A stretch of 64,000 nucleotides of DNA, taken from positions 142,737 to 206,736 of the forward strand of contig JALWXN010000004.1 in the NCBI GenBank assembly GCA_027078545.1. The letters run 5' to 3'. The position numbers and the translations under genes are program-made. The stretch is from Nitrososphaeria archaeon. GTDB taxonomy: Archaea > Thermoproteota > Nitrososphaeria > Geothermarchaeales > JDFR-13. The notes beneath the pieces were generated by a model. That model did no database searches and was not told the origin of the DNA. It saw nothing but the letters and a program-made list of their open reading frames with translations. Positions 7,411-55,486 of this stretch are shown piece after piece (the stretch's first letter is position 1; the number at the start of each line of letters is the position of its first letter).

Positions 7411-7413
7411 ACG

Positions 7414-9920: not shown

Positions 9921-10034
9921 TTTGTGACGTCATCATTATAAACAGTGATGCGGCTCCTCAATACGGAAATAATAAGATGTGGACCTGGATCACTAGACCA
10001 GCAAAAAGATCCGCATGTCTATATTCTCTCGCGA

Positions 10035-10439: not shown

Positions 10440-10467
10440 TGAGTATGGAATAATTGATTAGGTGTAG

Positions 10468-10722: not shown

Positions 10723-11510
10723 AGATTGGGCCTACTGAAAAGTATCTATGGAGTGAGATCGAGTCTAAAGGATCGATACATCTGAGCCTTCTCGACCCTG
10801 AGGAGTTTCAGGATCGTGAAAAGCTTATTGAAACGGTCTCTATAGCCGAAGAAGCAGGTACCTCTGGCTTCATGATAGGAGGCTCTACAGTCTTCGATCA
10901 GAGCCTCGTTGATCGTGTTGTCATGATGATAAAGGAGGTGACGTCACTACCCGTCATATTGTTTCCAAATGACATCACAGGATTGTCACGTCATGCAGAT
11001 GCCTTGTGGTTCATGTCGTTGCTAAACAGCATCAATCCCTACTTCATAACAGGGGTTCAGATGAGGGCCGCCTTCCTTGTGAAGGCTATGGGTCTAGAGG
11101 CCATCCCAATGGCATACCTGATTGTGGGTGAGGGCAAGACGGCGGGATACATGGGATATGCCCATAACATACCCTTAGATGAGCCTAAGATCGCGGCTGC
11201 CTATGCATTGGCCGCCAGATACATGGGGTTTAGATTCGTCTATCTCGAGGCCGGCTCGGGAGCGGGGAACAGAGTAGACACTAGGGTTATTAGGATAATC
11301 AAGAAGGCCGTCGACGAAATCGGACTCGTAGTAGGGGGAGGCATAAAAACCTATGAGGATGCCTTCGACGTAGCTAGTTCCGGTGCAGATATCGTTGTTA
11401 CGGGGAATATCCTGGAGGTGGATCCCAAGAGGATCTTCGACATCGTTAGAGGGGTAAGAGAGGGTGGAAAAGAGAAGCTTAGAACCCTTCATCGAAAAGC
11501 TCAGGACTAA
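10719..11510 (+). CDS. geranylgeranylglyceryl phosphate synthase (PcrB family)
   Basis: 'GFMIGGST', 'YLEAGSGAG', 'VVGGGI' motifs; 3' end overlaps the polD2 start by ~47 nt. Confidence 0.85.
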   Translation: MKIGPTEKYLWSEIESKGSIHLSLLDPEEFQDREKLIETVSIAEEAGTSGFMIGGSTVFDQSLVDRVVMMIKEVTSLPVILFPNDITGLSRHADALWFMSLLNSINPYFITGVQMRAAFLVKAMGLEAIPMAYLIVGEGKTAGYMGYAHNIPLDEPKIAAAYALAARYMGFRFVYLEAGSGAGNRVDTRVIRIIKKAVDEIGLVVGGGIKTYEDAFDVASSGADIVVTGNILEVDPKRIFDIVRGVREGGKEKLRTLHRKAQD

Positions 11511-33948: not shown

Positions 33949-35925
33949 GTGGTTATATTGAGTGTGACTAAGGATAACAAGAAACTATCAGTCCAGGAGT
34001 TGACTCTCCAGATATACCTCCGCCTACAGCAGGAGGGGGTCACGCCGACGAAGATAGAGTATGAGGGACCCGCACTAGCGATATTCACGAAGAATCCAGA
34101 GGTGTTGATAGAGGATCCGGCCAAGATAAGTAGGATTGCGACTGACTATAAGCGGCGCTTAGTCTTTAGATCCTCCCCCAACTACCGTATGGATGCTAGC
34201 CAGGCCAGGGAGAAGATCCTCGAGATACTTGCCAACGAGGGTATAAACCGGGAGCAGGTAAAGATCTTCTTCGACTCTCTCAGGGGAGAGGTACATATAT
34301 TCTTATCAGGCGTGAACGGCCTAGACTTTAGGCGTCTCAGCTACGTAATAGCGAAGGAGACGAAGTGGATACCCAAGTTTAGAAGCTACTACTCCGACGT
34401 CCCAGACGTCCTTAGGGACATATACTCGTCATACAGGAAGAATGGGACCAAGGGTAGGAGGATACTCTCGAGGATAGGTGAGAGGATCTTCAGGGAGCCC
34501 GTCAGGATGAGTAGGGATATCAGGATAATGGGTCTGGGTGGTGTGCAGGAGGTTGGGAGGTCCGCCATTGTACTCGAGACGTCGGAGAGCAAAGTGTTGA
34601 TAGACTTCGGTGTAAAGGTGAATGCAGATGGACTACTGGACTACGTGCCTAGGATCGACGCTATAGACTATCTCATAAACGACCTCGACGCCATCATCCT
34701 GACCCATGCCCACCTAGACCACTCGGGGATGATACCACTCCTCTATAAATATGGGTATCGGGGCCCGGTCTACATGACGGAGCCCACACTACCACTATCC
34801 GTACTCCTGATCAAGGACTTCATGGAGATCTCGAGGAAGAACGGGTTCCCCTCACTCTACAACATGAATGATGTGAAGGAGATGATTAGACACTCGATCC
34901 TACTGAGGTATAAACAGGTCACCGATGTATCGCCAGACATCAAGCTCACCTTCTACAATGCGGGGCATATCCTAGGCTCGGCCATGCCCCATATACACAT
35001 TAGGGAGGGGGTCTACAACATCCTCTTCACAGGGGACTTCAAGTTTGGTAGGACTAGGCTCCTGGAGACGGCCCATTCAGACTTCGCCCGTGTAGAGACC
35101 CTGGTGATGGAGAGTACATATGGAGCGGATACTGATAAGCTGCCTAGCAGGCCAGAGGTTGAGAGGCGCTTCGTAGAGTTCGTCAACAAGATATATGCCC
35201 AGAAGGGTAAGATCCTCATCCCCACACCAGGCGTTGGGAGATCCCAGGAGATGCTCGCCGTGATCCACCACTACATGAAACGGGTAGATCCGGACAGTAA
35301 GCTTAGGATACCTAGTGACATGAAGATCTATATAGATGGGATGATCGACGAGGCCAACAAGCTCCACCACATCTACTCCGAGTATCTACGGAGCGATATC
35401 CACGCAGCCCTCCGCTCAGACGACAATCCATTCAACAATGAGAATATAATCCCCATAACCAACTCATCCAGGAGGGCCGAGGCAATAGAGGATGAGGATC
35501 CAGCCATAATACTATCCACCTCAGGCATGATGCAGGGCGGGCCCGTGATCGAGTACTTCATAAACCTGGCCGGGTCGGAGAGGAACGCGATAGTCTTCGT
35601 GTCCTACCAGGCGCCGAATACCCTGGGACGTAAGATAGTGGATGGCGCCAAGAAGGTGGATATCCTCTATGAAGGCAGGATAAAGACGGTTGATATCTCT
35701 ATGCAGGTCGTGAAGTTCGACGGCTTCACAGGGCATAGTGATAGGAACCAGCTGGTAGGCTTCGTCAGCAGGCTGAAGAGCAAACTGGGTAAGACGTTTA
35801 GAAACGTGTATCTAGTCCATGGAGAGCCGAGTAAGATAGACTCACTATCAAGATTCCTAACAAGGAGGGTTGGCATATACTCCGAGGGGATGAAGCTTCT
35901 ATCGACGGTCCTGCTGAAGGAGTAG
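33949..35925 (+). CDS. aCPSF1/FttA (KH + metallo-beta-lactamase + beta-CASP RNase)
   Basis: 'LTHAHLDHSG', 658 aa, directly after psmB as in most archaea. Confidence 0.9.
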   Translation: MVILSVTKDNKKLSVQELTLQIYLRLQQEGVTPTKIEYEGPALAIFTKNPEVLIEDPAKISRIATDYKRRLVFRSSPNYRMDASQAREKILEILANEGINREQVKIFFDSLRGEVHIFLSGVNGLDFRRLSYVIAKETKWIPKFRSYYSDVPDVLRDIYSSYRKNGTKGRRILSRIGERIFREPVRMSRDIRIMGLGGVQEVGRSAIVLETSESKVLIDFGVKVNADGLLDYVPRIDAIDYLINDLDAIILTHAHLDHSGMIPLLYKYGYRGPVYMTEPTLPLSVLLIKDFMEISRKNGFPSLYNMNDVKEMIRHSILLRYKQVTDVSPDIKLTFYNAGHILGSAMPHIHIREGVYNILFTGDFKFGRTRLLETAHSDFARVETLVMESTYGADTDKLPSRPEVERRFVEFVNKIYAQKGKILIPTPGVGRSQEMLAVIHHYMKRVDPDSKLRIPSDMKIYIDGMIDEANKLHHIYSEYLRSDIHAALRSDDNPFNNENIIPITNSSRRAEAIEDEDPAIILSTSGMMQGGPVIEYFINLAGSERNAIVFVSYQAPNTLGRKIVDGAKKVDILYEGRIKTVDISMQVVKFDGFTGHSDRNQLVGFVSRLKSKLGKTFRNVYLVHGEPSKIDSLSRFLTRRVGIYSEGMKLLSTVLLKE

Positions 35926-37354: not shown

Positions 37355-37948
37355 TTGAAAGGGAGAATGAGATTTGTAAGTGAAATGAGTCTCGGAAGAG
37401 AGACGCAACTTATGACCTATAAAGATAAGGGTAAAACCATTAGGCCTATAAGCGTAACAATGATTAATGACAGTTTTATAGTTGCAGTCTATAAGGGTAA
37501 GAAAAGCGCAGCAGATATAGTAGTAAGATATAGACAAAGATTAAAAAACGGTGGTTGGTCTAGGATTCGAACTCCAAAACATATACACTGGACTGTGGAC
37601 ATTTTATTGAAGATGCTAAAATGTGACAAACTTACTAAAAAATTTCTAGACGAGCTAATAAAAATCTGGGAGAAAGATGTTCATCCACTATCAGAAGAAG
37701 ATGTAAAGAAATTAGACCTTAATCAATTGGTAATCAGTAAGAAAGATATATTGGAAAGGTTTAAAGAACTAAATAGATATGGAGAATATAGTGTTGATTT
37801 CCTCTTATTAATAGCAGAACTTCTCATGTTACAAGAAAAAACAAACTATCCAAGTGGAAAACTATTCCTCATATTGCTAAAAAAACTAAAGGAAGGTGAA
37901 GATCTGTTCAGTATTGTTCAAACAGCTTCACTTCGAAGACTTCAGTGA
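37355..37948 (+). CDS. hypothetical protein in the AT-rich islet
   Basis: ORF in low-GC DNA; no motif. Confidence 0.3.
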   Translation: MKGRMRFVSEMSLGRETQLMTYKDKGKTIRPISVTMINDSFIVAVYKGKKSAADIVVRYRQRLKNGGWSRIRTPKHIHWTVDILLKMLKCDKLTKKFLDELIKIWEKDVHPLSEEDVKKLDLNQLVISKKDILERFKELNRYGEYSVDFLLLIAELLMLQEKTNYPSGKLFLILLKKLKEGEDLFSIVQTASLRRLQ

Positions 37949-38098
37949 GGATAATTGTTGCTTCCTCTACTAGTTAAAAAGGCCAAGCCTGAATAGTTAT
38001 GTTAAAGGCCCTCGTTACAAAAACTGAGTTTATGGTTTCGACTACATTTACTTAGTCTATGAATGGCTCGATAAGGCAGCCTAGTTGTCTATGTTTAA

Positions 38099-39784
38099 TT
38101 ATTTAATTATATTTGCTAGTATGCCCGCTAACAGACTCGTTCTTTTCTCTATTTCTTCTCCGCTCCATTTCTTATATTTATCAACTAAGTATTTGGTGTT
38201 TAATGCTAAACCCGATTTTTTATAAGTCTCTTCCTTTTCATTATAGTTTTTAGAACCTAACTTGATGTTTTCATCCTCCTCTAAGAGAGTTAAATTTCCT
38301 ATTTTATAAACTAATTCAGGATTATCTAGTTTATCACGACGACTAATTGGATAAATATGCTCTAGTGTCAGGTCTTTTGAGGGGCGTTTCGTGTTCTCAG
38401 AGCTCTCAATTTCAAACAGCAAAGCTTTAGCTAATCTTTCATGTTTTCTTTCCTTAAATAAGAATTTAAGTAAACTTTGCTTAAACTCGTTATCCTCTGG
38501 AAATAGGTTACGCAGTTCTTGGTAATATTTTTCAGTGTTATTATTCTCAATAAGCTCTATCAATCGTCGTATTTTCTTTTCAAATTCACTTGGTGATTTA
38601 GAACATATTGTTCGTCTTATAAGTGTATAATATAAAGGTTTTAGTTTCTTCTCTATCTCTTTGTCGTTTATATTTCCTTTAGGATCTGCATATTTTTCAA
38701 GAAGAGCAAACATAATGGGAATGTGTTGTCTTATACCGATGGAGAAAAGAGTAGTTAAATAATCCACTATTGTCTCTTTCTTCCAATATATTTTCGATGG
38801 TGCTGAGATGTTCCTGTAATATATATTAAGAAATCGTTCTAGTTCGTCGAAAAATTGTCTGACATCATCAAGATTATTAATCCTCTTTTTTATTTCTTTA
38901 AAAATATCCTTTTCTCTTACAAAGTCATATTTGTATATAAGATAATATCTTATAACATATTTCAGTTCTCTACTTTCATATTCTGAGAGGAAGCTATTCC
39001 ACTTTTCATCAAAACGTATAACCTGTGTTTGATCCTCAGAATTACTTAGAATACCTAGAAGATAGTTTTTTATAAGGTCTAGTGGAGCTAAGGTAAGCCC
39101 TCTAGCGTTTAAAGTTTCGAAAATTAGAAAAGCGTTATGTTCAGAGTCCACTTCTACTACTACAGTAATTATATTCTCTTTTATCCCGATGTCAACAATC
39201 TTACTTAACCATTCTTCAATTTTCTGATTATTTTTCTTTATTTCTCTATCTATAATTTTATAGGACTCTACATAAGTTGTTAACATATTATTCCATGATG
39301 TATATTTTTTATCGTTTAGAAGTTTTCGCAGTTCCCTTTCCTTTTTCTGTAAAGAACCTTCTTTGATTGTTATAATTTTTTCGTAGAATTGTCTATCAAT
39401 CTTATTAGGAATGACACTTAGTTTCTCATTGCCTACAACATCATGATGACGCATAAGAAACAGTGAATGGATCCTATTGCTAAATTTTGTATAATTCATA
39501 TTAATAAGGTAGTCTCTTAGAGCAGCCAAGAAGAGACAGGTAGTTATTAGTCGTTGTTGACCATCGATTACAACATATTTATTCCTACCCTTTGATGTTA
39601 GAACCATCGGACCAATAAAATATTCCTCTCTAGACCCTTGCTCTATGATATCTAAAATAAATTCCTTTGCTTCCTCTTTCCAAGAATAGCTTCTCTGATT
39701 AATAGGAACTTCAAAATCTCTTGTCTGCAACAACTGTCCTAATGTTTCACTCCTAACATCTGTTACAACTTTTTTGTTACTCAT
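38099..39784 (-). CDS. GmrSD-like DUF262 (ParB/Srx-like NTPase) + DUF1524 (His-Me finger nuclease) defense protein
   Basis: 'KYVVIDGQQRLITT' DGQQR motif at the N-terminus; C-terminal 'TLEHIYPIS...NPELVYKIGNLTLLEE' H..N..H-like motif; low-GC context. Confidence 0.75.
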   Translation of the reverse strand: MSNKKVVTDVRSETLGQLLQTRDFEVPINQRSYSWKEEAKEFILDIIEQGSREEYFIGPMVLTSKGRNKYVVIDGQQRLITTCLFLAALRDYLINMNYTKFSNRIHSLFLMRHHDVVGNEKLSVIPNKIDRQFYEKIITIKEGSLQKKERELRKLLNDKKYTSWNNMLTTYVESYKIIDREIKKNNQKIEEWLSKIVDIGIKENIITVVVEVDSEHNAFLIFETLNARGLTLAPLDLIKNYLLGILSNSEDQTQVIRFDEKWNSFLSEYESRELKYVIRYYLIYKYDFVREKDIFKEIKKRINNLDDVRQFFDELERFLNIYYRNISAPSKIYWKKETIVDYLTTLFSIGIRQHIPIMFALLEKYADPKGNINDKEIEKKLKPLYYTLIRRTICSKSPSEFEKKIRRLIELIENNNTEKYYQELRNLFPEDNEFKQSLLKFLFKERKHERLAKALLFEIESSENTKRPSKDLTLEHIYPISRRDKLDNPELVYKIGNLTLLEEDENIKLGSKNYNEKEETYKKSGLALNTKYLVDKYKKWSGEEIEKRTSLLAGILANIIK

Positions 39785-40291
39785 TAGAATAACCTCCTAA
39801 CGACTCTGAATATGTTACCTACTAGCTTGTAATATCTGTTAAATATTTGCTTCAATTACATATATAAGTCGATTCCTTACACAAACACTGGGAAGAAAGT
39901 TCAAAGACTATATTAATTCCTTTATGTAAATAATTATTTCGAACAAGTTCCTCATTTAAGAACATGGGTGGGAAACCTATTATAAACCTGAGTTTGCAAC
40001 ACTTTGTCTTATAGGTGTTCAGCTACGAGAAATATAGTATATTATATGCATATGAACATCTCCATTGACAATAGTGATAATAATGATGTAAAAGTTTGAA
40101 TGAATCTTCAAGAACATCCAGGACTTTCAGATAAATTGTGAAGGGGGAAAGGGTAGTCTGATATATATTCTACTTTCAATTAGATACTTCCAACCAAGAC
40201 TTATCTATAACAAGTTAAAAAAATCAATGAAGAGGCCATAGAAAACCGGACAAACTTTATAAAACCGGAGTCTGAAAATATAGAGTTGACT

Positions 40292-40389
40292 GCCCCGGTG
40301 GTGTAGCCCGGCCAGCATACCGGCCTGTCGACAAGTATCCACGGGCGGTCAGCCGGTGGACCCGGGTTCAAATCCCGGCCGGGGCGCCA
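40292..40389 (+). tRNA. tRNA-Asp(GUC) with ~20-nt anticodon-loop intron
   Basis: GCCCCGG/CCGGGGC acceptor, G73, anticodon stem CCGGC/GCCGG enclosing CTGTCG+intron+A, CCA encoded. Confidence 0.75.
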
Positions 40390-40459
40390 AAAGTCCTAAT
40401 TATAACGGAAGGATTGAGAATACCTATGAGTCTAGCCCCTAGGATCTCTGATTCATTTT

Positions 40460-41860
40460 TCACTCTTCTACTCGGGTTATGGAGTTTCTTATTATCTTTA
40501 TAAGCTCATTATCCGTCACCCGTTCGTCTCTCAGGTTCTTGAAGTCGTATCTGGTGATGATCAGTTTGTTTATGCCTCTTCCATCTATTATGAATTCGAA
40601 CTCGAATTGGGGGTGGTCATCAAACACCTCGTTGAAGACCCCCTCTAGATAGGGATATATAAGAATAGTATTGGGTATAGGGGCTTTCCCATCATCCTTG
40701 CCCTCCAAGACCCTATTTACCTTATGAGCCAGCCTCGAGTAGACATACATCTGCCTGACATCATTAACATCTATCGGGATCTTGTCATACCCCTCCTTAT
40801 CCTGGTCCTTAGATCCCTTCAGCTCTTTGTACTTTACATCCACTACCAGTAGGATCCTACGGTTCTTGGATACCGTGATGTCCGGATACTGTGCAAAGAC
40901 TTCACTGTCCCTATTGATGCTCATGTCTCGTAACAGCTTACCGATGGGCCTTTGATGCACCACGTCATACCCAGTGAGCTCACGCTTCAGCAGTTGATAG
41001 ATGAATCGTTCGAAGAGATCGTTCATCTTGATGAAGAATCCATAGACCTCCCTGCCCCTCCCCACCTCTATCCTGTGGAGGAGTAGTCTCGCCAGATTGT
41101 ATGGCCTCCTAAACCTCTCATTTAACCTGTTGAAGACCGGTTCCCGATTAGTTGCTAACACCTTTGTATCCCTGTACATTGTTACTTCGCTCAACATATG
41201 TGATATCAGCTTTGCATAGGTCACCGTATCCCTATGTCTAGACATCTGTTCACATAGAGCGGCTGCCAGACGGAGAACCCTATTTAGTTCGTTATCCATG
41301 GACAGTGTATACTGCTCCTGTGTAAAGGTTATGAGCTGGTGTGGAAGCTTCCTAATCTGTCTAGAGACCAGTAGCTTCCCCCTAAGGAATGGCTCATCAT
41401 AAACCCTCCTAATGTATCTACGGTATACCCCGTTCTGAAGCTCCCTATAGAGCATGAACGTATATAGATACATTAGAACCTCGTGCAACGCCCTCTCAGA
41501 CACCCCTCTCTTCCTGAGCATAGCATGGGACTCCTTCAACTCCAGCTGTAGCGCTGTGTCGAGCATCCTAATGAACGCGATAGCCTCATCCTGTGTATCG
41601 AACAACCCTCTATCCCTAGCCCTCTTAAAAACCTTGGGGAATATGGTGAGGTTTATCCCATCTACATGTCCAAACCCGACATACTGGTTAGTATAGATGT
41701 TGACCTCTCCCCCCAGCCCAAGCTGGATCCTCAATATTCTCTCACGATTGATTACAACCCTCTCCTCTATCAGGGCTAACTCCCTCTCCGATACTCCTAG
41801 CTCCTCCTTCTTAAACGTAGCTCCTGGCTCGTAGATCGCTAAATCCTTAGCTCTCCTCAT
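40460..41860 (-). CDS. mcrC: McrC-like PD-(D/E)xK nuclease partner of McrB
   Basis: Start overlaps the mcrB stop; C-terminal 'YPDITVS...ILLVVDVKYKEL' D...D.K motif. Confidence 0.6.
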   Translation of the reverse strand: MRRAKDLAIYEPGATFKKEELGVSERELALIEERVVINRERILRIQLGLGGEVNIYTNQYVGFGHVDGINLTIFPKVFKRARDRGLFDTQDEAIAFIRMLDTALQLELKESHAMLRKRGVSERALHEVLMYLYTFMLYRELQNGVYRRYIRRVYDEPFLRGKLLVSRQIRKLPHQLITFTQEQYTLSMDNELNRVLRLAAALCEQMSRHRDTVTYAKLISHMLSEVTMYRDTKVLATNREPVFNRLNERFRRPYNLARLLLHRIEVGRGREVYGFFIKMNDLFERFIYQLLKRELTGYDVVHQRPIGKLLRDMSINRDSEVFAQYPDITVSKNRRILLVVDVKYKELKGSKDQDKEGYDKIPIDVNDVRQMYVYSRLAHKVNRVLEGKDDGKAPIPNTILIYPYLEGVFNEVFDDHPQFEFEFIIDGRGINKLIITRYDFKNLRDERVTDNELIKIIRNSITRVEE

Positions 41861-43845
41861 CAGCCCTCCTCTTCTTTTCTGGCCTGTGACGAGCCGCTAC
41901 CCTTCAACCTCTCCCGGAATTTTTCAAGACCTTCTATATTGTTGAGCTCTTCCATCCACTCTCTTGGATCCTTCAGATGGTACTTACCACCCCTTTCACT
42001 GAGGAAAACACTTGATAGGCCTCCCAATACAACGGCGAGGTCATCCCACCTATTATAGAAATACTCCTGTAAAAGAGGCATTATCCTATACACCCATACC
42101 TCTTTAAACGTCTCAAATGCATCATTTTCGTTTTTGGATCCAGCTAAGACCTCGAGGAAATAGCTATGCCCAATCCTATGATCCCTATCCAAGTAACTCT
42201 CAATTCTCTCGTTCAAAACCTCCAGGATCTCCTTCAGATGCTTTGCCAGCTCCTCCTTCTCCTCGCCAATCTTTCTAGCCACTTCTACCAGGGTATCGGG
42301 ATCGGGGGGTATCTCGAGGAATGCAAACCGTCTCCTCAATGCATAGTCGACAAGGGCGATACTCTTATCCGCAGTATTCATGGTACCGATAATATAGAGG
42401 TTTGGAGGAACCGCGAATAGCTCCTTTGAATAGGGCAGGGTTACCAACACGTAATTCTCTCCAAACAGCCTCTTATCCATCTCCAGGCAAGTAATCAACT
42501 CACCAAGTATCCTAGCCAAGTCACCCCTGTTTATCTCATCAATAACCAGATAGAACTTGCGAACAGACTCACCTGATTCGTCATATTTTTTCTTATACTC
42601 ATTAAGATCATCTGGGTTTTTAAGAATCTCACTAACGCCTTTCTTATAGCCTAGATCTTCAAGTAGGGCTTCTAAGGCCCTACGAGCCAGATCCTTAAAC
42701 ACACCATCCTCAACCTTATACATTATTCTACCCTTTTCATCGGTCACGGCTCTATAGCCCTCAACAAACTCCTCATAACTATATGATGGATGGAAAGTGA
42801 CAACCTCATAGAGATCTTTATTGCCACAAGTCACCCCATCCACGTATTTCAGAGCAAGAAAAGTCTTACCCGTACCAGGAGGACCATACAAAACAACCTG
42901 TCCATACATCTTTAGAAGATTATCAATATCTGAATATCTTTCCTCCTCTCTTAAGTTATCCTTCTCTTGATCATTATGGTTGCCATTGTGGTTACCCTCT
43001 TCCTTCGAGTGTTGGCCATTATTGTGTGTATAGAGATATATGAAACCAGAAAACCAAACAGTTTTGTATTTCACCCTACAAATCATATTTTTATTCAGTA
43101 TTTCGTTGAAATTCAAATAATGAATTTCCATAAGATATTTTCTCACATAAATTTCGGGTTCATTTTCAATTTCTTTCACCTTTGGAAGATGGTTACATGT
43201 TTTTGAAAAGGCTATGGCATTACTATCATATGGACAAAATATCTTCGGATTAATCAAAAATAATCCTTGAGTTAATTTTGGTACTCTTATCCCAGGTTCT
43301 GATCGTATTTCCTTAAATCTTTTAGAAAAGTAGCTTATGTCATTAACAAGATCCTCTATGGTATCATAATTACTTATTCTTTCCCCAAATTCCCATAACT
43401 TGGGGACGATGTCCTCGATGTTATTGCTATCGGGATCAAAGAAGAATCTTCGCTTTGGGGAGGGTTGTAATGGCTGCCCGGTTCCAACTGGTAAATCATA
43501 TTTTTTGCTAGTTCTTTTAATGCGTATCTCTTCTGGACGGATAGGTTTTTTACTTCTTCCTGCAGTATGGATAGAATAAATTATCGTAAATGGATCAATT
43601 AAATATTTTCCTTCTTTACTCTTAAACTTCTCCTTTTCCATTTTAATGCTTACTATTGATGTTAGTTCATCCACTAGTTCTTCATAAAACAATGCTTCTT
43701 CCTCGGGATCGGTCTTGACCTTCCTCCATTCGTCGAACAAATCTTTCCAGAACTCTAAGTATTTCTCGACCCAGTTATCATTATAACCTTTCATTAATGC
43801 CCTAATTTTTTGGTCGTGTTTCTTAATGCATTCCTCTAATGGCAT
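41860..43845 (-). CDS. mcrB: McrB-like AAA+ GTPase (type IV restriction) with novel ~300-aa N-terminal domain
   Basis: 'LYGPPGTGKTF', 'FHPSYSYEEFVEGYR', 'VIDEINRGD', 'IIGTMNTADKS...ALRRRFAF'. Confidence 0.85.
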   Translation of the reverse strand: MPLEECIKKHDQKIRALMKGYNDNWVEKYLEFWKDLFDEWRKVKTDPEEEALFYEELVDELTSIVSIKMEKEKFKSKEGKYLIDPFTIIYSIHTAGRSKKPIRPEEIRIKRTSKKYDLPVGTGQPLQPSPKRRFFFDPDSNNIEDIVPKLWEFGERISNYDTIEDLVNDISYFSKRFKEIRSEPGIRVPKLTQGLFLINPKIFCPYDSNAIAFSKTCNHLPKVKEIENEPEIYVRKYLMEIHYLNFNEILNKNMICRVKYKTVWFSGFIYLYTHNNGQHSKEEGNHNGNHNDQEKDNLREEERYSDIDNLLKMYGQVVLYGPPGTGKTFLALKYVDGVTCGNKDLYEVVTFHPSYSYEEFVEGYRAVTDEKGRIMYKVEDGVFKDLARRALEALLEDLGYKKGVSEILKNPDDLNEYKKKYDESGESVRKFYLVIDEINRGDLARILGELITCLEMDKRLFGENYVLVTLPYSKELFAVPPNLYIIGTMNTADKSIALVDYALRRRFAFLEIPPDPDTLVEVARKIGEEKEELAKHLKEILEVLNERIESYLDRDHRIGHSYFLEVLAGSKNENDAFETFKEVWVYRIMPLLQEYFYNRWDDLAVVLGGLSSVFLSERGGKYHLKDPREWMEELNNIEGLEKFRERLKGSGSSQARKEEEG

Positions 43846-44386: not shown

Positions 44387-44543
44387 CCCCCCGTAGCTCA
44401 GTGGCTAGAGCGGCCGGCTGTAGCTGTCTCGGCCCACGGATGACTGGGCGTATGCCTTGGGTTGAGTCCGTGGCGGCCGGCGGAGACAGGGCGATGTCCC
44501 CTCCAGCGGCAGGTCGTGGGTTCAAATCCCACCGGGGGGACCA
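44387..44543 (+). tRNA. tRNA-Tyr(GUA) with C1-G72 and two introns (~52 nt after position 37 and ~29 nt in the variable/T-arm region)
   Basis: CCCCCCG/CGGGGGG acceptor with A73, D-arm GCTC-AGTGGCTA-GAGC, anticodon stem GCCGG...CCGGC enclosing CTGTAG, T-arm GTGGGTTCAAATCCCAC, CCA. Confidence 0.55.
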
Positions 44544-47045: not shown

Positions 47046-48314
47046 TCAGTAGCTCAGGGGGTATCTAAGCAGGGCTGCCACGCCTCCGAACTGGCTGAAG
47101 ATCTTGCCATGCTCCGTCTCGGGGGTTATCAGGACTACCTTGAACCCCATCTCCTCACCCTTATCGGCGAGGTAGTCTATCAACCCCTTCTCCTCAGCTA
47201 TGGACATCTCGGCGCCGCACTTGTCGCACTTGGGTGGGCGGTACTCAAGCTTCAATGCATCTGAGGGGTCGAGGATCAACTCCTTCTCATATCCACATTT
47301 TGGGCATCTAAGCCTTACATACCTCTTGTCGATATCCTCCATCACCAGTACCGTGTCTATGGCCCCGCTGTATATGTTCCTAACCACCTCGTCGATGCCG
47401 TAGAGAACCATGTTGTGCCTCTTGCTCAGCCTTGTTAGGAACTCGTCGACCAGCCTCTTCTCCCTGACATACTTCATCCCCGATAGGATGTCCCTAGCCC
47501 TGTCGAGGATCTCCCTGAGCCCCTCCTCCCCCGAGTAGTTCGTGTCTATGACAGCCACGATCTTGTTCTTGATCCTATAGTCTAGATCCGCCTCCTCGAT
47601 GAACTCGTTCTTAGTAAAGCCTGGCCCACCGACTATGACCCCCCTCAGCCGGGGATAGACATCATCCCTGAGGAACTCTTCATTCACGTGTTTAGCCACC
47701 CTGTCGAAGTATTGGTGGACAGCCATCTCCCTCAGCCGCTCGAACCTCCTGGCCGACTGGCCACCTGCCCTATGCTTACCGGGTATCCCAGAGGTGTATT
47801 TACCCAGCACCTTGATCCTACTCCCCTCCAGTAGGCCTATCGCCGCCTCGTTCACATCTATCGATATGAGGCCGAAGACCTCCTTCTCCCTGAGGGTCTC
47901 CTCTAGATACTCGGTGTGGAAATGGTCGTCACACCTGTAGAGGTTGACGTTCACCGGCTCGGGGGGCTCCACCACGTATATCTCCATCTTCTCAGTCCCC
48001 GGGCCCGATACGGGTATGGCTCCACAGAAGACTACGAGCCCGTTCTCAGGGGCCTCGTCATAGTACTTGAGCCTCTCAATAACCTTGGTTATAGCGTCCT
48101 TCACATGTTTACGGGTCGTGTCGGACTTTATGTTCTCGGCGGTGGCATACTCCTGCCTAAGATAGTTTATCACGTCGGACATCCTCTTCCTAGGAGGTAT
48201 GTATAGGGAGATAAGCTCGGTCCCCCTACCCTTCTTCCTCTTAATCTCCTCAATCATCTTCTTTATCCTATAACGCCTGAGATCCCGCTCCTCAACCTTC
48301 TCCTCTCTAGCCAT
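47046..48314 (-). CDS. prf1: peptide chain release factor aRF1
   Basis: 'GIPGKHRAGGQSARRFERLR' GGQ motif; NIKS-like region; start taken at MAREEKV rather than the 559-aa ORF. Confidence 0.85.
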   Translation of the reverse strand: MAREEKVEERDLRRYRIKKMIEEIKRKKGRGTELISLYIPPRKRMSDVINYLRQEYATAENIKSDTTRKHVKDAITKVIERLKYYDEAPENGLVVFCGAIPVSGPGTEKMEIYVVEPPEPVNVNLYRCDDHFHTEYLEETLREKEVFGLISIDVNEAAIGLLEGSRIKVLGKYTSGIPGKHRAGGQSARRFERLREMAVHQYFDRVAKHVNEEFLRDDVYPRLRGVIVGGPGFTKNEFIEEADLDYRIKNKIVAVIDTNYSGEEGLREILDRARDILSGMKYVREKRLVDEFLTRLSKRHNMVLYGIDEVVRNIYSGAIDTVLVMEDIDKRYVRLRCPKCGYEKELILDPSDALKLEYRPPKCDKCGAEMSIAEEKGLIDYLADKGEEMGFKVVLITPETEHGKIFSQFGGVAALLRYPLSY

Positions 48315-48354
48315 ACCAATTATATTTCGAGGCGGCCTCCATAATAACCTCTGG

Positions 48355-49044
48355 ATGGTCGGGATGGCCGGGTATGTAGTCAAGCTGACCGGCTCACTAT
48401 TCGAGGAGGAGAACTGGGAGACACTGGTATCGATAGCCGAGACAGCCCGCCTCGCCAGGGGTAGGGCGAGGCTACTCTTCGTATGTGGAGGTGGGAGGCT
48501 ACTTAGGAAGTGGCTATCCCTCCTGAGGAGGGAGGGCGGGGCGAGTGAATACGACCTGGACATGCTCGGCATAATGTTTACAAGGGTCAACGCAAGGATA
48601 TTCAGCCTCCTCCTCAAGCCCGAGTCGGAGGAGAGGATACCCGAGACCGTGGAGGAGGCGGTGATGCTGGCTCGGAACACTGATAGACACATCGTCATGG
48701 GAGGCGTATCCCCAGGCTTCTCCACAAACGCGGTGGCAGCCTTCCTAGCAAGGGAGCTGGGCTACAGCTTCATAAACATGACTGGCGCCGGAGGCGTATA
48801 TGACAAGGACCCCACGATACACAGCGACGCGAAGCTCTTGAGAAGGGTCGACACGGAGAAGCTGGCGGAGATACTGGGAGCAACATCCGAACATGCGGGG
48901 CACTACCCACTCCTCGACAAGACCTCCCTAGGGATAATAAGGAGGTACAGGGTCAAGACCTACATAATCCCACCCGACCCTGAATCCCTAGGAGACATAC
49001 TGAGCGGCAGAGAGCCGAGGAGGGGGAGCATAGTCACCCCATAA
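48355..49044 (+). CDS. pyrH: uridylate kinase (amino-acid kinase fold)
   Basis: 'LFVCGGG', 'GVSPGFSTNAVAAFLA', ~225 aa. Confidence 0.75.
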   Translation: MVGMAGYVVKLTGSLFEEENWETLVSIAETARLARGRARLLFVCGGGRLLRKWLSLLRREGGASEYDLDMLGIMFTRVNARIFSLLLKPESEERIPETVEEAVMLARNTDRHIVMGGVSPGFSTNAVAAFLARELGYSFINMTGAGGVYDKDPTIHSDAKLLRRVDTEKLAEILGATSEHAGHYPLLDKTSLGIIRRYRVKTYIIPPDPESLGDILSGREPRRGSIVTP

Positions 49045-49106: not shown

Positions 49107-49195
49107 GGAGGGGTTCCCCTAGCCTGGCCAACGGGGCGCGGTTCAGGCCCGCGTGGCGTAGGCCTTCGTGGGTTCAAATCCCACCCCCTCCACCA
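49107..49195 (+). tRNA. tRNA-Leu(CAG), intron-free
   Basis: Same acceptor and D-arm as the 5686 copy; anticodon arm CGCGG-TTCAGGC-CCGCG; long variable arm; CCA. Confidence 0.8.
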
Positions 49196-49380
49196 CCCCT
49201 ATCAACACTCCTAGACACCCAACCACCAACACAGTAAACCATTTACAGACACCAGACTTGCAAAGCTAGACTAAACAATTATTCACCACTTCGAATCCGA
49301 AATAGAAATTTTATATAAGAAGACTTAGGAAATAGCTTATATAGAAAAGAAATATGCTAGGTCAGTGAAGGTGGAACGAG

Positions 49381-49734
49381 ATGAAAATGTCTAGCCGGAA
49401 CTACAAGGTATTCGCGTTGATCCTGGGCAACGCCCTACTAGTCCTAGCAATATTCCTAGAAACCAGCTTCAGACCCGAAGCCGTCATAGTATTCTCATCA
49501 TACTTCGTAATATCATCCATACTATCCAGGTACATAGAAAGCCCTGGATCCCTATTCCACATCACAGTCTCCCTCCTCGTACTATCAATCGTAATATACA
49601 ACAGGCTCATCGGAGACACGAGAAACATACACATAGACATCGCAGTCTTATCAACATACATGGCAGTCACAACAGCAAGAGAAATATACCACGAAGCAAG
49701 GAAGAGACGGCAAACCAACAAACCAAAGCCATAA
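49381..49734 (+). CDS. small membrane protein (3 TM helices)
   Basis: Hydrophobic ORF. Confidence 0.35.
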   Translation: MKMSSRNYKVFALILGNALLVLAIFLETSFRPEAVIVFSSYFVISSILSRYIESPGSLFHITVSLLVLSIVIYNRLIGDTRNIHIDIAVLSTYMAVTTAREIYHEARKRRQTNKPKP

Positions 49735-49967
49735 AACCCCCGGCATAAATACCGAGGGACACCAAGCCACCCAAAAACATCAACAATACAGATAAACAAC
49801 ACCCTCCACCCTTGAGACAGGACAACCAATAGAGGATCGAGGCACGAATCCACAAAGCTGTTGATGGGTTGCTAGGATAATGGAAGCCGTCTGATGATTC
49901 GGTAGGGGGATTTTAGACAGGTTGTTAAATAAATAATGCCATTATAGTTATTTGGGGGCTAAAACCC

Positions 49968-51068
49968 GTGTATAAGCAAGGTATTCCCCTAATACTTATA
50001 GCAATACTCGTAACCGGGTTAACTCCCATCCAGGCCGTGTCGATTGATGATGATCCTCCCGTAAGGGTGTTGCTGAAGTATATTGATGAGGGCTTCACCC
50101 ATATAGGGGATGGGGTCTATGTCATCGACTACATGGAATATCTAAAGCCTCGTAACAGGACTGTATTAGTAAATGGCGAGAAGCTCCCCCGCGAAGCGGA
50201 GGAGTTCATGAGTAACCACGTACTGAATTCCCAGATCATGAAGATGTATGAAAAATACGTGTCTAGCATAAAGTCCCTAGTGGTCACGGCCCTCGAGATC
50301 GAGCAGAGCGTCACCGTGATACCCACGATACACCACTACAACGAGAAGAAGGATATAGTCCTCCTGAGATACCGTATAAACCTCTTCATGGACGACAAGT
50401 ATAGAGACTTTGTAGAGGCCAAGATAAAGGAGCTCTACCCAGTCCTGATCAGACACTTCAGGGCATGGTCGTCAAAGGCAGCTGAACAGTTCTACTACAT
50501 GACGGGGATAGACATCAGCGGCGAGTATAGGAACGAGACCATCATAGTCCTCATAGCAGACATGAAGACGGAGCCCCACTACATAGTGGGGAGGGAGGTA
50601 TATATCCCCAAGGGCTCCAGAGTAGTCGAGGACCCGATCAACGTCACCCACCTAAAAGAGGTGCTGAGAGACGCCATGAATAGATGGCCAGAGCTGGTGG
50701 GCCATGACTACTCATTCGGAATACTCAGGATATTCCTCACAGCATACGACAACCCCCCAACAGAGGAGATACTGGCGAAGGCAACCATGCTGAGGAGGGA
50801 GATACTGGGGAGGGACGACCTACCCATACAGGTAGTCCTCTTCAGAAAAATTCGCATCACCGACATAGAGATAGCCCCATACAGACCAGCAGAGACATCG
50901 CTACAGCCCCCCACAGACCCTGAGACCCAGCCCCAAACCCAGGAACAGCAAGACCCAGCGGCCGAGGAAGACCCGAGCCCAATCACCGCCATAGCCATAA
51001 CAGCCACCACAGCCACGATACTAGCAGCACTAACCCACATACTGAGACGCATCAGGAGAACAGGGTAG
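49968..51068 (+). CDS. secreted surface protein with Pro/Thr/Gln-rich linker and C-terminal membrane anchor
   Basis: N-terminal signal peptide; 'PPTDPETQPQTQEQQDPAAEEDPSP' linker then 'ITAIAITATTATILAALTHILRRIRRTG'. Confidence 0.5.
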   Translation: MYKQGIPLILIAILVTGLTPIQAVSIDDDPPVRVLLKYIDEGFTHIGDGVYVIDYMEYLKPRNRTVLVNGEKLPREAEEFMSNHVLNSQIMKMYEKYVSSIKSLVVTALEIEQSVTVIPTIHHYNEKKDIVLLRYRINLFMDDKYRDFVEAKIKELYPVLIRHFRAWSSKAAEQFYYMTGIDISGEYRNETIIVLIADMKTEPHYIVGREVYIPKGSRVVEDPINVTHLKEVLRDAMNRWPELVGHDYSFGILRIFLTAYDNPPTEEILAKATMLRREILGRDDLPIQVVLFRKIRITDIEIAPYRPAETSLQPPTDPETQPQTQEQQDPAAEEDPSPITAIAITATTATILAALTHILRRIRRTG

Positions 51069-51104
51069 GAGCCAAGAACCAGCCGGACAACCCCCCACTA
51101 AACA

Positions 51105-51125
51105 AGGTAAAACTTATATACCCAC
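51105..51125 (+). promoter_or_regulatory. candidate BRE/TATA box of the 16S rRNA promoter
   Basis: 'AAGGTAAAACTTATATA' about 200 nt upstream of the mature 16S 5' end. Confidence 0.3.
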
Positions 51126-51263
51126 CCCCATAAACATAAAGATGGAACACCAGTCCGTGTGGCGGTATCCAGGCGACAGAGGCGCCCGCCTCGAATGACC
51201 CCTGGATCTCCACACACGGACACACCACCAGATGTCGGTCCAACCGAGGAAAAGATGGTTGGG

Positions 51264-51303
51264 CCGGAGGAGGGACACGCACAGACAACCCACCAACCCC
51301 CCG
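51264..51303 (+). other. 16S pre-rRNA processing stem, 5' strand
   Basis: CCGGAGGAGGGACAC and CAACCCACCAACCCCCC are exact reverse complements of 52866-52880 and 52841-52857. Confidence 0.8.
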
Positions 51304-51325
51304 CACAGGCTATACTCCCCGCCAA

Positions 51326-52824
<1,499 letters not shown>

Positions 52825-52840
52825 AGGTGTTCTGGGTGGT

Positions 52841-52880
52841 GGGGGGTTGGTGGGTTGGTGTTGGGTGTCCCTCCTCCGGT
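52841..52880 (+). other. 16S pre-rRNA processing stem, 3' strand
   Basis: GGGGGGTTGGTGGGTTG ... GTGTCCCTCCTCCGG pairs with the leader. Confidence 0.8.
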
Positions 52881-53300
52881 TTTGTTATGTTGTTTGTTGT
52901 GCTATTGTTTTGATTGTTGTTTCTAGGTGTTTGTTGAGTTGTTGTGTTGTTTTTGGTGGGTTGGTTGTTTCTATTCTGTTTTTTCGGGTTTGTTTGTAGT
53001 TGTGGGGTTTTAGTGTTTTTTTGAGTTTTTGTAGGGTTTTTTGTTTGTTGGTTTCGATTCTTATTATGTATCCTTGTGGTTCGTCGTAGATCATTAGGGT
53101 TATGTGTGTGTCTGGCTGGGGTTTGTAGTGTGCCTCTATTTGTGGCCATCCCCAGTTCTGTGTTGATTCTAGGATTGGTGGTAGGTTGTTTTTGAGTGAT
53201 TCTTCGAGTATTTTTCGGGCTATGTCTAGGTATGTCCTCATCTTCTCCCTCTTTGTTTGTTGGCGTGGGCGGGTGTGTCTTGTTATTCGTTCTTGTGTTA
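52881..53300. repeat. extreme strand-asymmetric low-complexity tract (plus strand G+T rich, almost no A, few C; degenerate TTG/GTTT-like repeats)
   Basis: Direct reading, e.g. 'gttttgttatgttgtttgttgtgctattgttttgattgttgtttctaggtgtttgttgagttgttgtgttgttttt'. Confidence 0.8.
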
Positions 53301-53820
53301 CTTGTTTGAGTGTGTCTATTCCTTGTCTGACTAGGTTTTTTATGTGGGTTGTGTCGAGGGTTTCTAGTCTGTATCTGAGGATGGTGAATGCTACTCCGTC
53401 TGGGTGGATCTGTTCCTCTATGTCTAGTCCTTGTTGCCGTAGCTTCTCCGCGTTTTTTCTGCGTATGTGGTGGTATTTGAAGGCTTCTGGGTATTTCTGC
53501 ATTAGTTGTTGTAGGAATTCTCCTTTCCATGCTCCTTCCATTGGTTTTACTTCTTCCCATTCCTGGTCTAGGTCGAAGAGGATTGTTTCGAAGATCTTCT
53601 CTTTTGGTGTCTCGAGGGCTAGGATCATGTTGTCCATGTCTATCCAGATGGCTTCTATGGAGTAGTCCTCGATCAGGCTTACGGTTACTGATCGGTGGTC
53701 TATGGCTGTGGCTATCTCTGGGGGTATGGTCTCGTCCTCTAGTACTAGCTCGGTTATGACCCTCATCAGGTCGTATGCCTTTGTTAGGCTCCTCATAACT
53801 CCCCCCTCTTCTCCTCCCAA
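52885..53820 (-). CDS. hypothetical protein, paralog of 54557..55486; the C-terminal third is a Q/T/K/N/P low-complexity tail encoded by the T-depleted strand (possibly decaying)
   Basis: Shared 'YPEAF(K/R)...LR(Y/L)RL' segment with the 309-aa ORF; the tail lies in the tract where stop codons cannot occur. Confidence 0.4.
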   Translation of the reverse strand: MGGEEGGVMRSLTKAYDLMRVITELVLEDETIPPEIATAIDHRSVTVSLIEDYSIEAIWIDMDNMILALETPKEKIFETILFDLDQEWEEVKPMEGAWKGEFLQQLMQKYPEAFKYHHIRRKNAEKLRQQGLDIEEQIHPDGVAFTILRYRLETLDTTHIKNLVRQGIDTLKQVTQERITRHTRPRQQTKREKMRTYLDIARKILEESLKNNLPPILESTQNWGWPQIEAHYKPQPDTHITLMIYDEPQGYIIRIETNKQKTLQKLKKTLKPHNYKQTRKNRIETTNPPKTTQQLNKHLETTIKTIAQQTT

Positions 53821-53929
53821 TGTAAGATGTAATCTTGGGGTATGGCTGTTTTAACTTATTTCTTGACTAGGTTATCTGTGTCTGGAGAGTGTATTGGTTA
53901 AATTTTGATTTAGATATCTATTTTTTGGA

Positions 53930-54595
53930 ATGAGGCTTGCTTTACTGTCTCTCGCTTTGGGAGCCATATTTCTATATGTTGTCCTTAGTTATCCTCTGGT
54001 CTATCCTCTAGCTGAAAAAGATGGTAGAAGGGTATGTCTCGACTTAGAGGCGCTGGAGATAGATATGACGATTATCGTTGTTGGTGAGACTAGTGCCTAT
54101 GTAGATGGGGTTATAGAGGTGTATATAGATAGGGGTATGGGGGTTGTACGTCTAGAGCCTGATGATCTAGATGATTTTGACTGGATGGAGGTTGATGGGC
54201 TCGGCATAGTCGTGTTCTATGGCGATTGGCTGGCCAGCCATGTGTCAGACCCGAGGATAGCAGGCTTTATTGCTGAAATCGAGTTTGATAGGATAGGTCT
54301 TGTAGCGATCGATGGCAATACATCTAGCCTCTTTACCCTTCTGGATATGGTGGGTATCTATAAACTTGTACAAGAGGGTGGTGTAAAGTGGAACCCTGCA
54401 TATTCAAATCCTCATGTGGTGGGGTATATGCATCTTGAGGGGGTGATGCCTAATGGAAGCATATACTACTTCCCCTCGATCTTAATGTCGAATAGTAGGC
54501 TTGAGATAGATGCGGCTATCGCGATTGCCAATTGGATGGCTGGTGAAGACTACGAGTCAGAGCTGGACTGTGAATGGGTCCAGCTCCCGGGGTAG
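53930..54595 (+). CDS. secreted/membrane-anchored hypothetical protein
   Basis: N-terminal hydrophobic 'LALLSLALGAIFLYVVLSY'. Confidence 0.4.
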   Translation: MRLALLSLALGAIFLYVVLSYPLVYPLAEKDGRRVCLDLEALEIDMTIIVVGETSAYVDGVIEVYIDRGMGVVRLEPDDLDDFDWMEVDGLGIVVFYGDWLASHVSDPRIAGFIAEIEFDRIGLVAIDGNTSSLFTLLDMVGIYKLVQEGGVKWNPAYSNPHVVGYMHLEGVMPNGSIYYFPSILMSNSRLEIDAAIAIANWMAGEDYESELDCEWVQLPG

Positions 54596-55486
54596 TGTAT
54601 CCCTAATCCACTGCCTCAGTCTTAGTGTTCCTATGAATACTTCTCTGTATAGTAGCTTCTCTGTATGGAGTGTCTCTTTATACCTGCCCGTCTCTAGTAG
54701 TTCCCGGCGTTTCTCGGGTGTCGCGGGCCTCATCACTACATGGTATTTATGGCTGTCCATCTCTATCTCTAGGGCTTTGACCAGCCTGCTCTTCTCCGTT
54801 CTGATATGGATCGCCGTGGGGGTCAGGTTGGATAGGTATACTGCCTGGGGTGTCTCGCCGATCCTGAGTAGGCTCTTCAGAGCAGTCTTCGCGGTCTCGT
54901 ATAGCTCGTCTGTCGTCCTGGTCTCCCCCCTCCTATAGTAGGGATCGGCGGCGTCTCGATCCCTACCCATCTCCCTACACCATCTCTGGAATGCCTCGGT
55001 GGCCTCCCTTGTCCTTGCGAGTATCTCGCCCGGCCCCCACCTGGCTATACGGAGCTTTAGCCTCGTATATGTATAGCTGTTCCGATCCACAATCGTCTCC
55101 AGCCTAATATTCATCTCCCTCGAGACTTTCTGAGCCGCCTCACGGGACATATCTAGATGTCTGAAGGCCTCGGGATACCTCTCCCTAAGGCTCTCTAGGG
55201 TGCTGGGGCTACTCCAGTCATCCACGTCCGAGAACTCGTCCTCCGCCCCGGGGTATAGCTGGGCTATCATCTCGGCTAGCTCATAGCCACCGCTCCTCGC
55301 CTCTAGCAGCCTGCCCTGCCGCCTAAGCTCCAGCTCCTCCAGCCTATCATCATCTAGGGTGATGAGGACCCTCCCCTCGTTTATGGATATGGAATAGTAT
55401 GGGGCGAATATCGTCTCCCCGATTAGGTGCTTGGCGGCCAGATACGACATATCCAGGTTCTCCCGGATCTTCCCATGTCTAGTCAT
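54557..55486 (-). CDS. hypothetical protein, last gene of the TGT-like operon
   Basis: Start overlaps the stop of the upstream 408-aa gene by 8 nt. Confidence 0.45.
   Translation of the reverse strand: MTRHGKIRENLDMSYLAAKHLIGETIFAPYYSISINEGRVLITLDDDRLEELELRRQGRLLEARSGGYELAEMIAQLYPGAEDEFSDVDDWSSPSTLESLRERYPEAFRHLDMSREAAQKVSREMNIRLETIVDRNSYTYTRLKLRIARWGPGEILARTREATEAFQRWCREMGRDRDAADPYYRRGETRTTDELYETAKTALKSLLRIGETPQAVYLSNLTPTAIHIRTEKSRLVKALEIEMDSHKYHVVMRPATPEKRRELLETGRYKETLHTEKLLYREVFIGTLRLRQWIRDTLPRELDPFTVQL

Follow-up and report, generated by a model that had tools for sequence, protein, structure and literature searches.

Strand-skew islands of opposite sign around an archaeal 16S rRNA gene and a conserved protein-coding gene opposite a G/T-rich tract

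Introduction

A stretch of 64,000 nucleotides from a Nitrososphaeria archaeon (GTDB lineage Archaea; Thermoproteota; Nitrososphaeria; Geothermarchaeales; JDFR-13; assembly GCA_027078545.1, contig JALWXN010000004.1, positions 142,737 to 206,736), here called the window, contains a tract directly downstream of its 16S rRNA gene (positions 52881-53300 of the window) in which the plus strand is almost entirely G and T. Here, we report that this tract is the strand opposite the last ~140 codons of a conserved gene for a protein of 303 amino acids (aa), which converges on the 16S gene. The tract is also where the skew is strongest within two ~2-kb islands of opposite sign around the 16S gene. On both sides, the strand running 5' to 3' away from the 16S gene is the G+T-rich one. 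We consider it somewhat probable (about 0.55) that this extreme composition results from a strand-specific pressure toward transitions that acts locally, around the 16S gene.

A G+T excess on transcribed DNA's non-template strand (PMC10030826) and the G>A and T>C gradients of mitochondrial DNA, ascribed to single-strand deamination (PMC8565317), represent the two nearest parallels, transcription-associated strand asymmetry and the mitochondrial heavy-strand gradient; literature searches gave no description of skew islands flanking rRNA genes. If the cause is mutational, the islands would be an unusually clean natural record of a strand-specific DNA damage or repair process in an uncultivated thermophilic archaeon. 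The process would be strong enough to saturate synonymous sites and local enough for an internal control, as one genome, or indeed one gene family, offers a comparison a few kilobases away. It would then become approachable, from sequence and metagenome reads, how much rRNA transcription or R-loops damage neighbouring archaeal DNA, which strand is exposed, and how far a protein fold tolerates a six-amino-acid alphabet. It would also be a rare case of genome position reshaping a protein. If acquired genes merely brought an odd codon usage with them, there is nothing out of the ordinary in the finding.

Results

Composition and extent of the G/T-rich tract

The plus strand of 52881-53300 consists of 8.8% A, 10.5% C, 29.0% G and 51.7% T, with A and C at 7.4% and 3.7% in its first 190 nt. 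Its G+T content of 80.7% compares with a mean of 49.6 +/- 4.4% and a maximum of 67.1% in all other 420-nt windows of the 64-kb stretch (z = 7.0), which bears out the strong strand asymmetry just 3' of the 16S gene described in an earlier note on this DNA. The peak 200-nt window, 52833-53032, reaches 89.5% G+T. The end at 53300 given in that note did not hold, since the skew sets in at 52826 on the plus strand, right after the end of the 16S gene, and decays gradually to background at ~54600. The tract was found in seven independent assemblies and is therefore not an assembly artefact; it is real and highly non-random.

The strand complementary to the tract contains 7-10% T. The statement that this strand cannot contain stop codons is correct for two of the minus-strand frames, with 0 and 1 stops in 52826-53300, and wrong for the third, with 16.

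Neither of two alternatives previously offered for the tract, a degenerate microsatellite and a G/U-rich structured spacer RNA, survived analysis. Tandem Repeats Finder gave only scraps of 21-35 nt (1.9-3.3 copies of 8- or 11-nt units, scores 35-42), and the direct-repeat families in the tract are matches of low-complexity composition. The minimum free energy of 220 nt was -12.9 kcal/mol (z = +1.06), with 173 of 200 shuffled sequences folding at least as well, and the tract had no match in Rfam at E <= 1. No large subunit (LSU, 23S) rRNA gene that a spacer RNA could precede was found anywhere in the window, where the 16S gene is unlinked, in agreement with the earlier observation that no 23S gene follows it.

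A conserved protein-coding gene on the complementary strand

Among the 304 codons of the 303-aa gene, stop codon included, T occurs 24, 80 and 0 times at codon positions 1, 2 and 3, respectively. The third positions are A at.53, C at.33, G at.14 and T at.00, and the probability of 0/304 third-position T is ~2.5e-25 at the frequency of.17 usual for the window. The orthologue in the related contig L001 has 94% nucleotide identity and no indels within the open reading frame (ORF), the first indel occurring just past the stop codon; the two genes differ by 40 synonymous and 16 non-synonymous codons. An exhaustive hidden Markov model search assembled a family of 27 representatives, mostly of 290-330 aa; an earlier scan of a genome collection with the 303-aa protein had returned no relatives. 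The codon phase, the substitutions between orthologues and the homologues that align through the tail show that the tract is coding sequence, contrary to its description as non-coding, and its conservation as a protein among orthologues is the outcome that the earlier note had itself named as speaking against its reading. The stop codon is 5 nt away from the base of the processing stem of the 16S gene.

On the coding strand, T is gone from the third positions and G is mostly gone. Where residues can be replaced, they have shifted to K, T, Q, N, P and H, which have A/C-only codons, and hydrophobic core positions retain Ile and Leu, with T at codon position 2 only. It is because of this combination of A/C wobble bases, residues with A/C codons and T confined to position 2 that the plus strand is near-pure G/T. 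Translational codon selection was rejected as the cause, since the conserved housekeeping genes of the window (aRF1 and a valyl-tRNA synthetase-like gene) prefer third-position G and C, not A. A paralogue with ordinary codon usage is located only 0.8 kb away, at 54557-55486. The third-position T frequency is.13 in this paralogue and.28 in the homologue P0007, versus 0 in the 303-aa gene; judged by these relatives, the A/C codon bias does not belong to the gene family as such.

The most extreme part of the tract corresponds to a K/T/Q/N-rich tail (codons 244-303) with the appearance of low complexity. Its third positions are A at.72 and C at.28 with neither G nor T, 68% of its codons are pure A/C, and 11 of its 12 T's are at codon position 2, in Ile and Leu codons. 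Compared with L001, the tail has 5 synonymous and 3 non-synonymous codon differences. The homologues P0007, P0009 and P0013 align through it (P0007, of 296 aa, covers profile positions 4-299, and P0009 positions 1-297), and they have in common the motif P-x-K-T-x-x-[QE]-L-x-K-[HW]-[LI]-E...I-K-x-I. In the AlphaFold model of the protein, the mean predicted local distance difference test (pLDDT) score is 52.8, too weak for a fold search; the tail is the part with the highest scores (65-84 for residues 230-300), predicted as a helix, a beta-hairpin and a helix. By alignment and by model, the tail is the conserved C-terminal part of the protein and not a run-on. As to function, nothing significant was found for the 303-aa protein in Pfam, NCBIfam or PADLOC.

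Two long overlapping ORFs had been explained as artefacts of the skew. This is true of the one at 52817..53560, which is spurious: the frame that starts at codon position 3 of the real gene has no T-initial codons and is therefore stop-free. The ORF ending at 52885 is the real 303-aa gene. In practice, extreme skew beside rRNA genes can thus mask real genes as well as yield long spurious overlapping ORFs, a frame without T-initial codons being one without stops.

Two skew islands of opposite sign around the 16S gene

The features of the locus are listed in Table 1. Along the 366-aa gene of the upstream island, third-position T drops toward the 16S gene through.28,.13,.08,.05,.03 and.02. Downstream, third-position G+T on the 16S-sense strand is 1.00,.80,.97,.78 and.75 along the 303-aa gene and ~.65 through the 221-aa gene, and it is at baseline beyond ~1.9 kb. 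The 221-aa gene has third-position T of.36 and C of.18, and differs from its counterpart in the relative L077 by 20 synonymous and 7 non-synonymous changes.

The two downstream genes lie on opposite strands, and their proteins are shifted in opposite directions: T/(T+A) is.73 in the 303-aa protein vs.20 in the 221-aa protein, I/(I+V) is.79 vs.44, and K/(K+E) is.48 vs.16. Together with the gene pairs of relatives described below, these opposite shifts indicate that the bias depends on DNA strand and on distance from the 16S gene, not on the gene.

A cluster of three genes for proteins of 309, 408 and 530 aa serves as a control from the same genome. It is paralogous to the 303/420/517-aa cluster that adjoins the 16S gene in relatives (BLASTP identities of 24%, 27% and 39%), and its third-position T frequencies are.13,.24 and.14.

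Table 1. Features of the 16S rRNA locus and its flanks (positions in the window)
Feature	Position	Strand	Remarks
tRNA-Leu (CAG)	49107..49195	+	ARAGORN; outer edge of upstream island
Upstream island	49196..51326	+	A/C-rich on 16S-sense strand; from end of tRNA-Leu to 16S; holds the 117-aa and 366-aa genes
117-aa gene	49381-49734	+	Upstream island; third-position T.02
366-aa gene	49968-51068	+	Upstream island
TATA-like element aaacttatatac	51110..51121	+	Presumed 16S promoter, read from sequence; counterpart kept in relatives
16S processing stem, 5' arm	51264..51302	+	Inverted repeat I1; A/C-rich
Archaeal 16S rRNA gene	51327..52825	+	Full-length match to Rfam RF01959 (1457.9 bits); skew pattern is centred on it
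Spurious overlapping ORF, 247 aa	52817..53560	-	From ORF list; by-product of T-free third positions
16S processing stem, 3' arm	52841..52879	+	Inverted repeat I1; G/T-rich; kept in L001 and L077; tract starts right after it
Protein-coding gene, 303 aa	52885..53796	-	ATG at 53796, TAA at 52887-52885
K/T/Q/N-rich tail of 303-aa protein	52888..53067	-	Codons 244-303; most extreme part of the tract
Oligo-T runs, T5-T7 (n = 9)	52950..53458	+ (16S-sense)	Densest T5+ cluster in the window; putative archaeal intrinsic terminators of 16S read-through
221-aa gene	53930..54595	+	Real gene in outer downstream island; coding strand is the G/T-enriched one
Three-gene cluster, 309/408/530 aa	54557..58301	-	Normal codon usage; same-genome control for the 303-aa gene

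Elements of the 16S locus

We infer from the sequence that the TATA-like element ~215 nt 5' of the 16S gene is its promoter. The arms of the processing stem, the inverted repeat I1, are 39 nt each and 87% complementary. No complementarity between the 16S flanks was found beyond this 39-nt stem, and a long-range processing helix joining them was rejected on this ground.

The signal for archaeal intrinsic termination is a run of T. The plus strand has ten runs of T5 or longer in 52826-54600 and none in the 2.1-kb upstream island, which makes the former claim that no terminator follows the 16S gene doubtful. The T5-T7 runs resemble archaeal oligo-dT terminators in lying 3' of an RNA gene on its sense strand; they are no more frequent than composition predicts (5 observed vs 5.8 +/- 1.6 in shuffles), and selection for T-run terminators was rejected for this reason. 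Also encoded in the window (33949-35925) is a protein with KH, beta-lactamase and beta-CASP domains that is homologous to the archaeal transcription termination factor FttA/aCPSF1; it bears on how read-through of the 16S gene might end without T-runs.

16S loci in related genomes

The aRF1 of the window is 99% identical to that of the near-conspecific genome L002, which places the organism in Candidatus Geothermarchaeota, and the gene order of aRF1 followed by 16S is kept in the group. Orthologues of the tract were found on six further contigs. Comparison of 52280-54962 with L077 gave 0-1 substitutions per 150 nt in the 16S gene, 5-7 in the tract and 9-19 further out. This rise of divergence with distance from the 16S gene suggests either that the favoured transitions are exhausted at compositional equilibrium or that recombination is anchored in the conserved 16S gene. 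In the arrangement of L001, third-position G+T is.65-.98 through the 420-aa gene to ~2.0 kb and falls to baseline in the next gene. The flanks are hypervariable, with two gene arrangements upstream of the 303-aa gene and a 1.1-kb methyltransferase insertion in L002.

Complete 16S loci were available for two further lineages, represented by L083 (the lineage of L004) and L087. Both carry an upstream A/C-rich island of 1.2-1.8 kb, which extends over genes of both orientations. In L004/L083, a methyltransferase gene in the 16S sense has third-position T of.09 and G of.11, and its neighbour pointing away from the 16S gene has T of.50, G of.30, A of.11 and C of.09. The divergent homologue of this antisense gene in L087 has a third-position G+T of.12-.27 on the 16S-sense strand, and a convergent PALP gene of L087 has.15 in its last 60 codons and is normal in the remainder. 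As judged across these loci, the bias tracks strand and position relative to the 16S gene, not gene family or orientation.

In L004, codons 241-332 of the PALP gene (3636-4631) show the A/C-rich bias (T.09-.10) at a distance of 3.3 kb from the 16S gene, behind an unbiased 381-aa gene. This biased 3' end looks like a relic of an older arrangement, the same gene end facing the island directly in L087.

A scan of a metagenome collection with the pattern GCGGCTGGATCACCTCC-N{30,60}-CTCCTCCG, which joins the 16S 3' end to the stem and has no archaeal-specific base after CACCTCC, returned bacterial 16S-spacer loci only; all of these continue with TT, and all but one with TTTCT.

Synonymous differences between two methyltransferase genes

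The S-adenosylmethionine (SAM)-dependent methyltransferase gene is found in two settings. In L004, it is 260 nt from the 16S gene and strongly biased. In L002, it is 1.9 kb away, within the 1.1-kb insertion (reverse complement of 5245-6355; insertion site at 49837-49880 of the window), and has AT-rich, unbiased codons. The two proteins are 75% identical. In codons of identical residues, the synonymous differences from L002 to L004 on the A/C-rich strand were T>C 33 times vs C>T 3 times, and G>A 19 times vs A>G 2 times, with 19 transversions in all; as the pair has no outgroup, the direction was taken from the distant copy, whose composition is ordinary. On the G+T-rich strand, the same changes read as A>G and C>T, the pair of transitions expected from deamination of single-stranded DNA. 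The comparison suggests a strand-specific transition bias tied to position.

Discussion

If a strand-specific transition pressure acts around the 16S gene, the two islands would represent the equilibrium of A>G and C>T pressure on the outward-running strand. The driver that we favour would be transcription running outward from the very strong rRNA unit: read-through of the 16S gene on the downstream side, fading over successive oligo-T stops, and antisense initiation from a bidirectional TATA element on the upstream side. Bidirectional initiation from one archaeal TATA box is widespread, with starts ~50 nt apart (PMC6640164); an antisense start at the 16S promoter is putative here. In both directions, the outward strand would be the exposed non-template strand, and R-loops may add to the effect once this strand is G-rich. 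As a side effect, T-runs that may terminate 16S read-through would now be written into the antisense of a coding sequence. The outward polarity fits two candidate drivers equally well, outward transcription with R-loops and replication-linked strand exposure.

The earlier note had proposed deamination of the exposed non-template strand of the rRNA unit through transcription or R-loops. Our results support it in part: the bias is bound to strand and position, and in the methyltransferase pair the prevailing changes are both deamination-type transitions (33:3 and 19:2). Read-through of the 16S gene and R-loops alone are insufficient, because read-through does not explain the mirror-image island upstream of the promoter and because L083 and L087 do without the downstream island.

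Several observations weigh against a transition pressure centred on the 16S gene. The complete 16S loci of L083 and L087 have no comparable downstream island (G+T of.47-.56), so that strong 16S transcription alone is not sufficient, and the Candidatus Geothermarchaeum rappei-like loci L005 and L007 have not even the upstream one. The tRNA genes within the window show no such skew islands. The upstream profile is non-monotonic, the bias of the 117-aa gene (1.7-1.9 kb from the 16S gene) exceeding that in the 5' half of the 366-aa gene (1.0-1.3 kb), which may result from newly inserted genes that are short of equilibrium. The many T-runs should halt read-through early. As for the direction of change, the tract orthologues form one tight clade at 54-60 nt from the window with no outgroup, which leaves the tract substitutions unpolarised, and the methyltransferase pair, likewise without outgroup, comes from two lineages of differing genomic G+C. 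Finally, A>G appears more saturated than C>T, opposite to the rates of spontaneous deamination.

Tentatively, and at somewhat under even odds, the interpretation can be extended. Some Geothermarchaeota may have a 16S-anchored zone of strand-specific hypermutation, driven by single-strand exposure through R-loops, outward transcription or replication conflict. In such a zone, A>G and C>T changes on the outward-running strands over ~2 kb on each side would, in the course of evolution, deprive the wobble positions of nearby genes of T and make their proteins K/T/Q/N-rich or V/G/F-rich; the heavy-strand gradient of mitochondria would then have a counterpart on an archaeal chromosome. Such a zone may be self-reinforcing, which would explain its being on or off in different lineages.

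Of the alternatives, replication-linked strand exposure is the most probable, although we regard it as unlikely. Forks or strand-displacement synthesis would start at the 16S gene (for example, R-loop-primed), or forks stalled at this heavily transcribed gene would bare 1-2 kb of the leading-strand template, in a manner resembling the heavy-strand gradient of mitochondrial DNA (mtDNA). The sign switch across the 16S gene has an origin-like polarity, both transitions are the same as in the mitochondrial gradient, and the island-free tRNA genes would be explained, since they have no long RNA polymerase arrays. Outside the islands, too, third positions to the right of the 16S gene are more T- and G+T-rich on the plus strand than those to the left (t = 4.4-4.7, orientation controlled), but this regression rests on nine right-side genes only. 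The strong skew is gone within ~2 kb instead of being replichore-wide, no long non-coding, origin-like region adjoins the 16S gene, and this explanation alone does not account for the lineage-specific downstream island. A replication origin at the 16S gene is further disfavoured by a canonical origin neighbourhood 43 kb to the left, with orc1/cdc6 at 7414-8619, PolD subunits and GTTTCA/TGAAAC repeats in the intergenic region 8620-8939. Two related schemes, resection of a double-strand break from within the 16S gene and forks stalling outside it with an exposed lagging-strand template, were rejected by reasoning only, as each predicts the opposite polarity.

We give little credence to the proposal that the composition itself is selected, either as a stack of oligo-T terminators that shields the convergent gene, with T-run-free strands toward the 16S gene, or as an A/C leader and G/U trailer that help the ends of the pre-rRNA to pair. 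The uneven distribution of T5+ runs between the two islands would suit the former, but their number is that of shuffled sequences, and terminator selection cannot account for T-free third positions over 900 nt or for the fact that genes are biased whichever way they point. In composition the flanks do complement each other, and the stem arms themselves are A/C-rich and G/T-rich, as the latter would have it; actual complementarity is limited to the 39-nt stem, and the position of the TATA element places the 2-kb upstream island outside the pre-rRNA. Moreover, L083 and L087 do without the downstream tract.

Equally improbable is the absence of any local process, with accessory genes of A/C-rich codons acquired horizontally (for example, from a single-stranded or rolling-circle replicon) into a variable island beside the 16S gene. 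The hypervariable flanks, with their two arrangements and the L002 insertion, are what acquisition would produce, most island genes are orphans without a Pfam hit, and the 117-aa gene is biased wherever it is located. On the other hand, an ordinary SAM-methyltransferase gene is biased only in its 16S-adjoining copy, and an ordinary PALP gene only in the last 60 codons, where it faces the island. Third-position T falls smoothly toward the 16S gene inside a single gene, the sign flips across the 16S gene, and three lineages with different island genes have the upstream island in common. The readings of the tract as a non-coding scar free of constraint, as a degenerate microsatellite or as a spacer RNA that is G/U-rich and structured have only the raw composition in their favour and are hardly credible in view of the codon phase, purifying selection, the homologues aligning through the tract, the weak repeat scraps, the fold z-score of +1.06 and the lack of an Rfam match at E <= 1.

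A 16S-centred transition pressure can be compared with several known systems. As in transcription-associated asymmetry, G+T is in excess on the would-be non-template strand leaving the rRNA unit, with C>T and A>G on that strand (PMC10030826). The bias here weakens away from the unit and changes sign from one side of it to the other, as the known asymmetry reverses upstream of bidirectional promoters. Unlike the skews of a few percent seen elsewhere, it reaches 0/304 third-position T; it lies outside the transcribed gene, on neighbours of either orientation and in an archaeon, where transcription of the islands is putative; and it is strong enough to rewrite amino-acid composition, while being absent downstream in sister lineages. 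Vertebrate mtDNA is similar in having one G+T-rich strand and genes on the other with A/C-rich third positions, the same transitions, and a gradient from a fixed point (PMC8565317). In contrast to mtDNA, the bias here is mirror-symmetric and limited to ~2 kb to either side of a single gene in a chromosome of ~1.1 Mb, and T rather than G is the rarest third-position base. We know of no strand-displacement replication in this archaeon. Promoters and terminators of eukaryotic genes contain G-rich, R-loop-prone regions. The tract resembles these as a G-rich non-template strand just 3' of a unit that is highly transcribed; such a strand could stabilise RNA:DNA hybrids and aid termination. Unlike these regions, the tract is more T-rich (52-60% T) than G-rich, with few G clusters, and is coding on the other strand, and R-loops are putative here.

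Other features of the window

In relatives, the cluster of ~530, 410 and 305 aa occurs as two diverged tandem copies (L001, 1660-5395; L081, 6339-11759); the 16S-proximal copy of the window is without its two larger genes. The 530-aa protein of the intact copy matches the PADLOC TGT model (DpdA-like transglycosylase) at 4e-12, and the middle protein ends in a PD-(D/E)xK nuclease-like motif. The cluster may represent a system, of unknown type, for DNA modification or defence.

The replication-gene neighbourhood extends over 2728-14874 and includes a Hef/XPF-like helicase-nuclease, the PolD small subunit (5890-7410), orc1/cdc6 (7414-8619, minus strand) and the PolD large subunit (11464-14874). 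A candidate chromosomal origin is the 320-nt intergenic region upstream of cdc6 (8620-8939), in which GTTTCA/TGAAAC motifs recur and a G-run is present; the third-position skew also changes sign near 8.7 kb.

An AT-rich island at 37355-43845, with third-position A+T of ~.6-.7 vs.35 elsewhere, carries GmrSD-type and McrBC-type restriction genes between tRNA genes and is probably horizontally acquired defence DNA. Rfam places tRNA genes at 40292-40386 (95 nt) and 44387-44540 (154 nt), presumably intron-containing, that ARAGORN missed, and the tRNA-Leu called by ARAGORN at 49107-49195 is absent from the Rfam output. The aRF1 ORF at 47046-48725 is listed with 559 aa from a GTG start, ~150 of them ahead of Pfam domain 1; the relatives are 422 aa long, and the true start is probably internal to the listed ORF.

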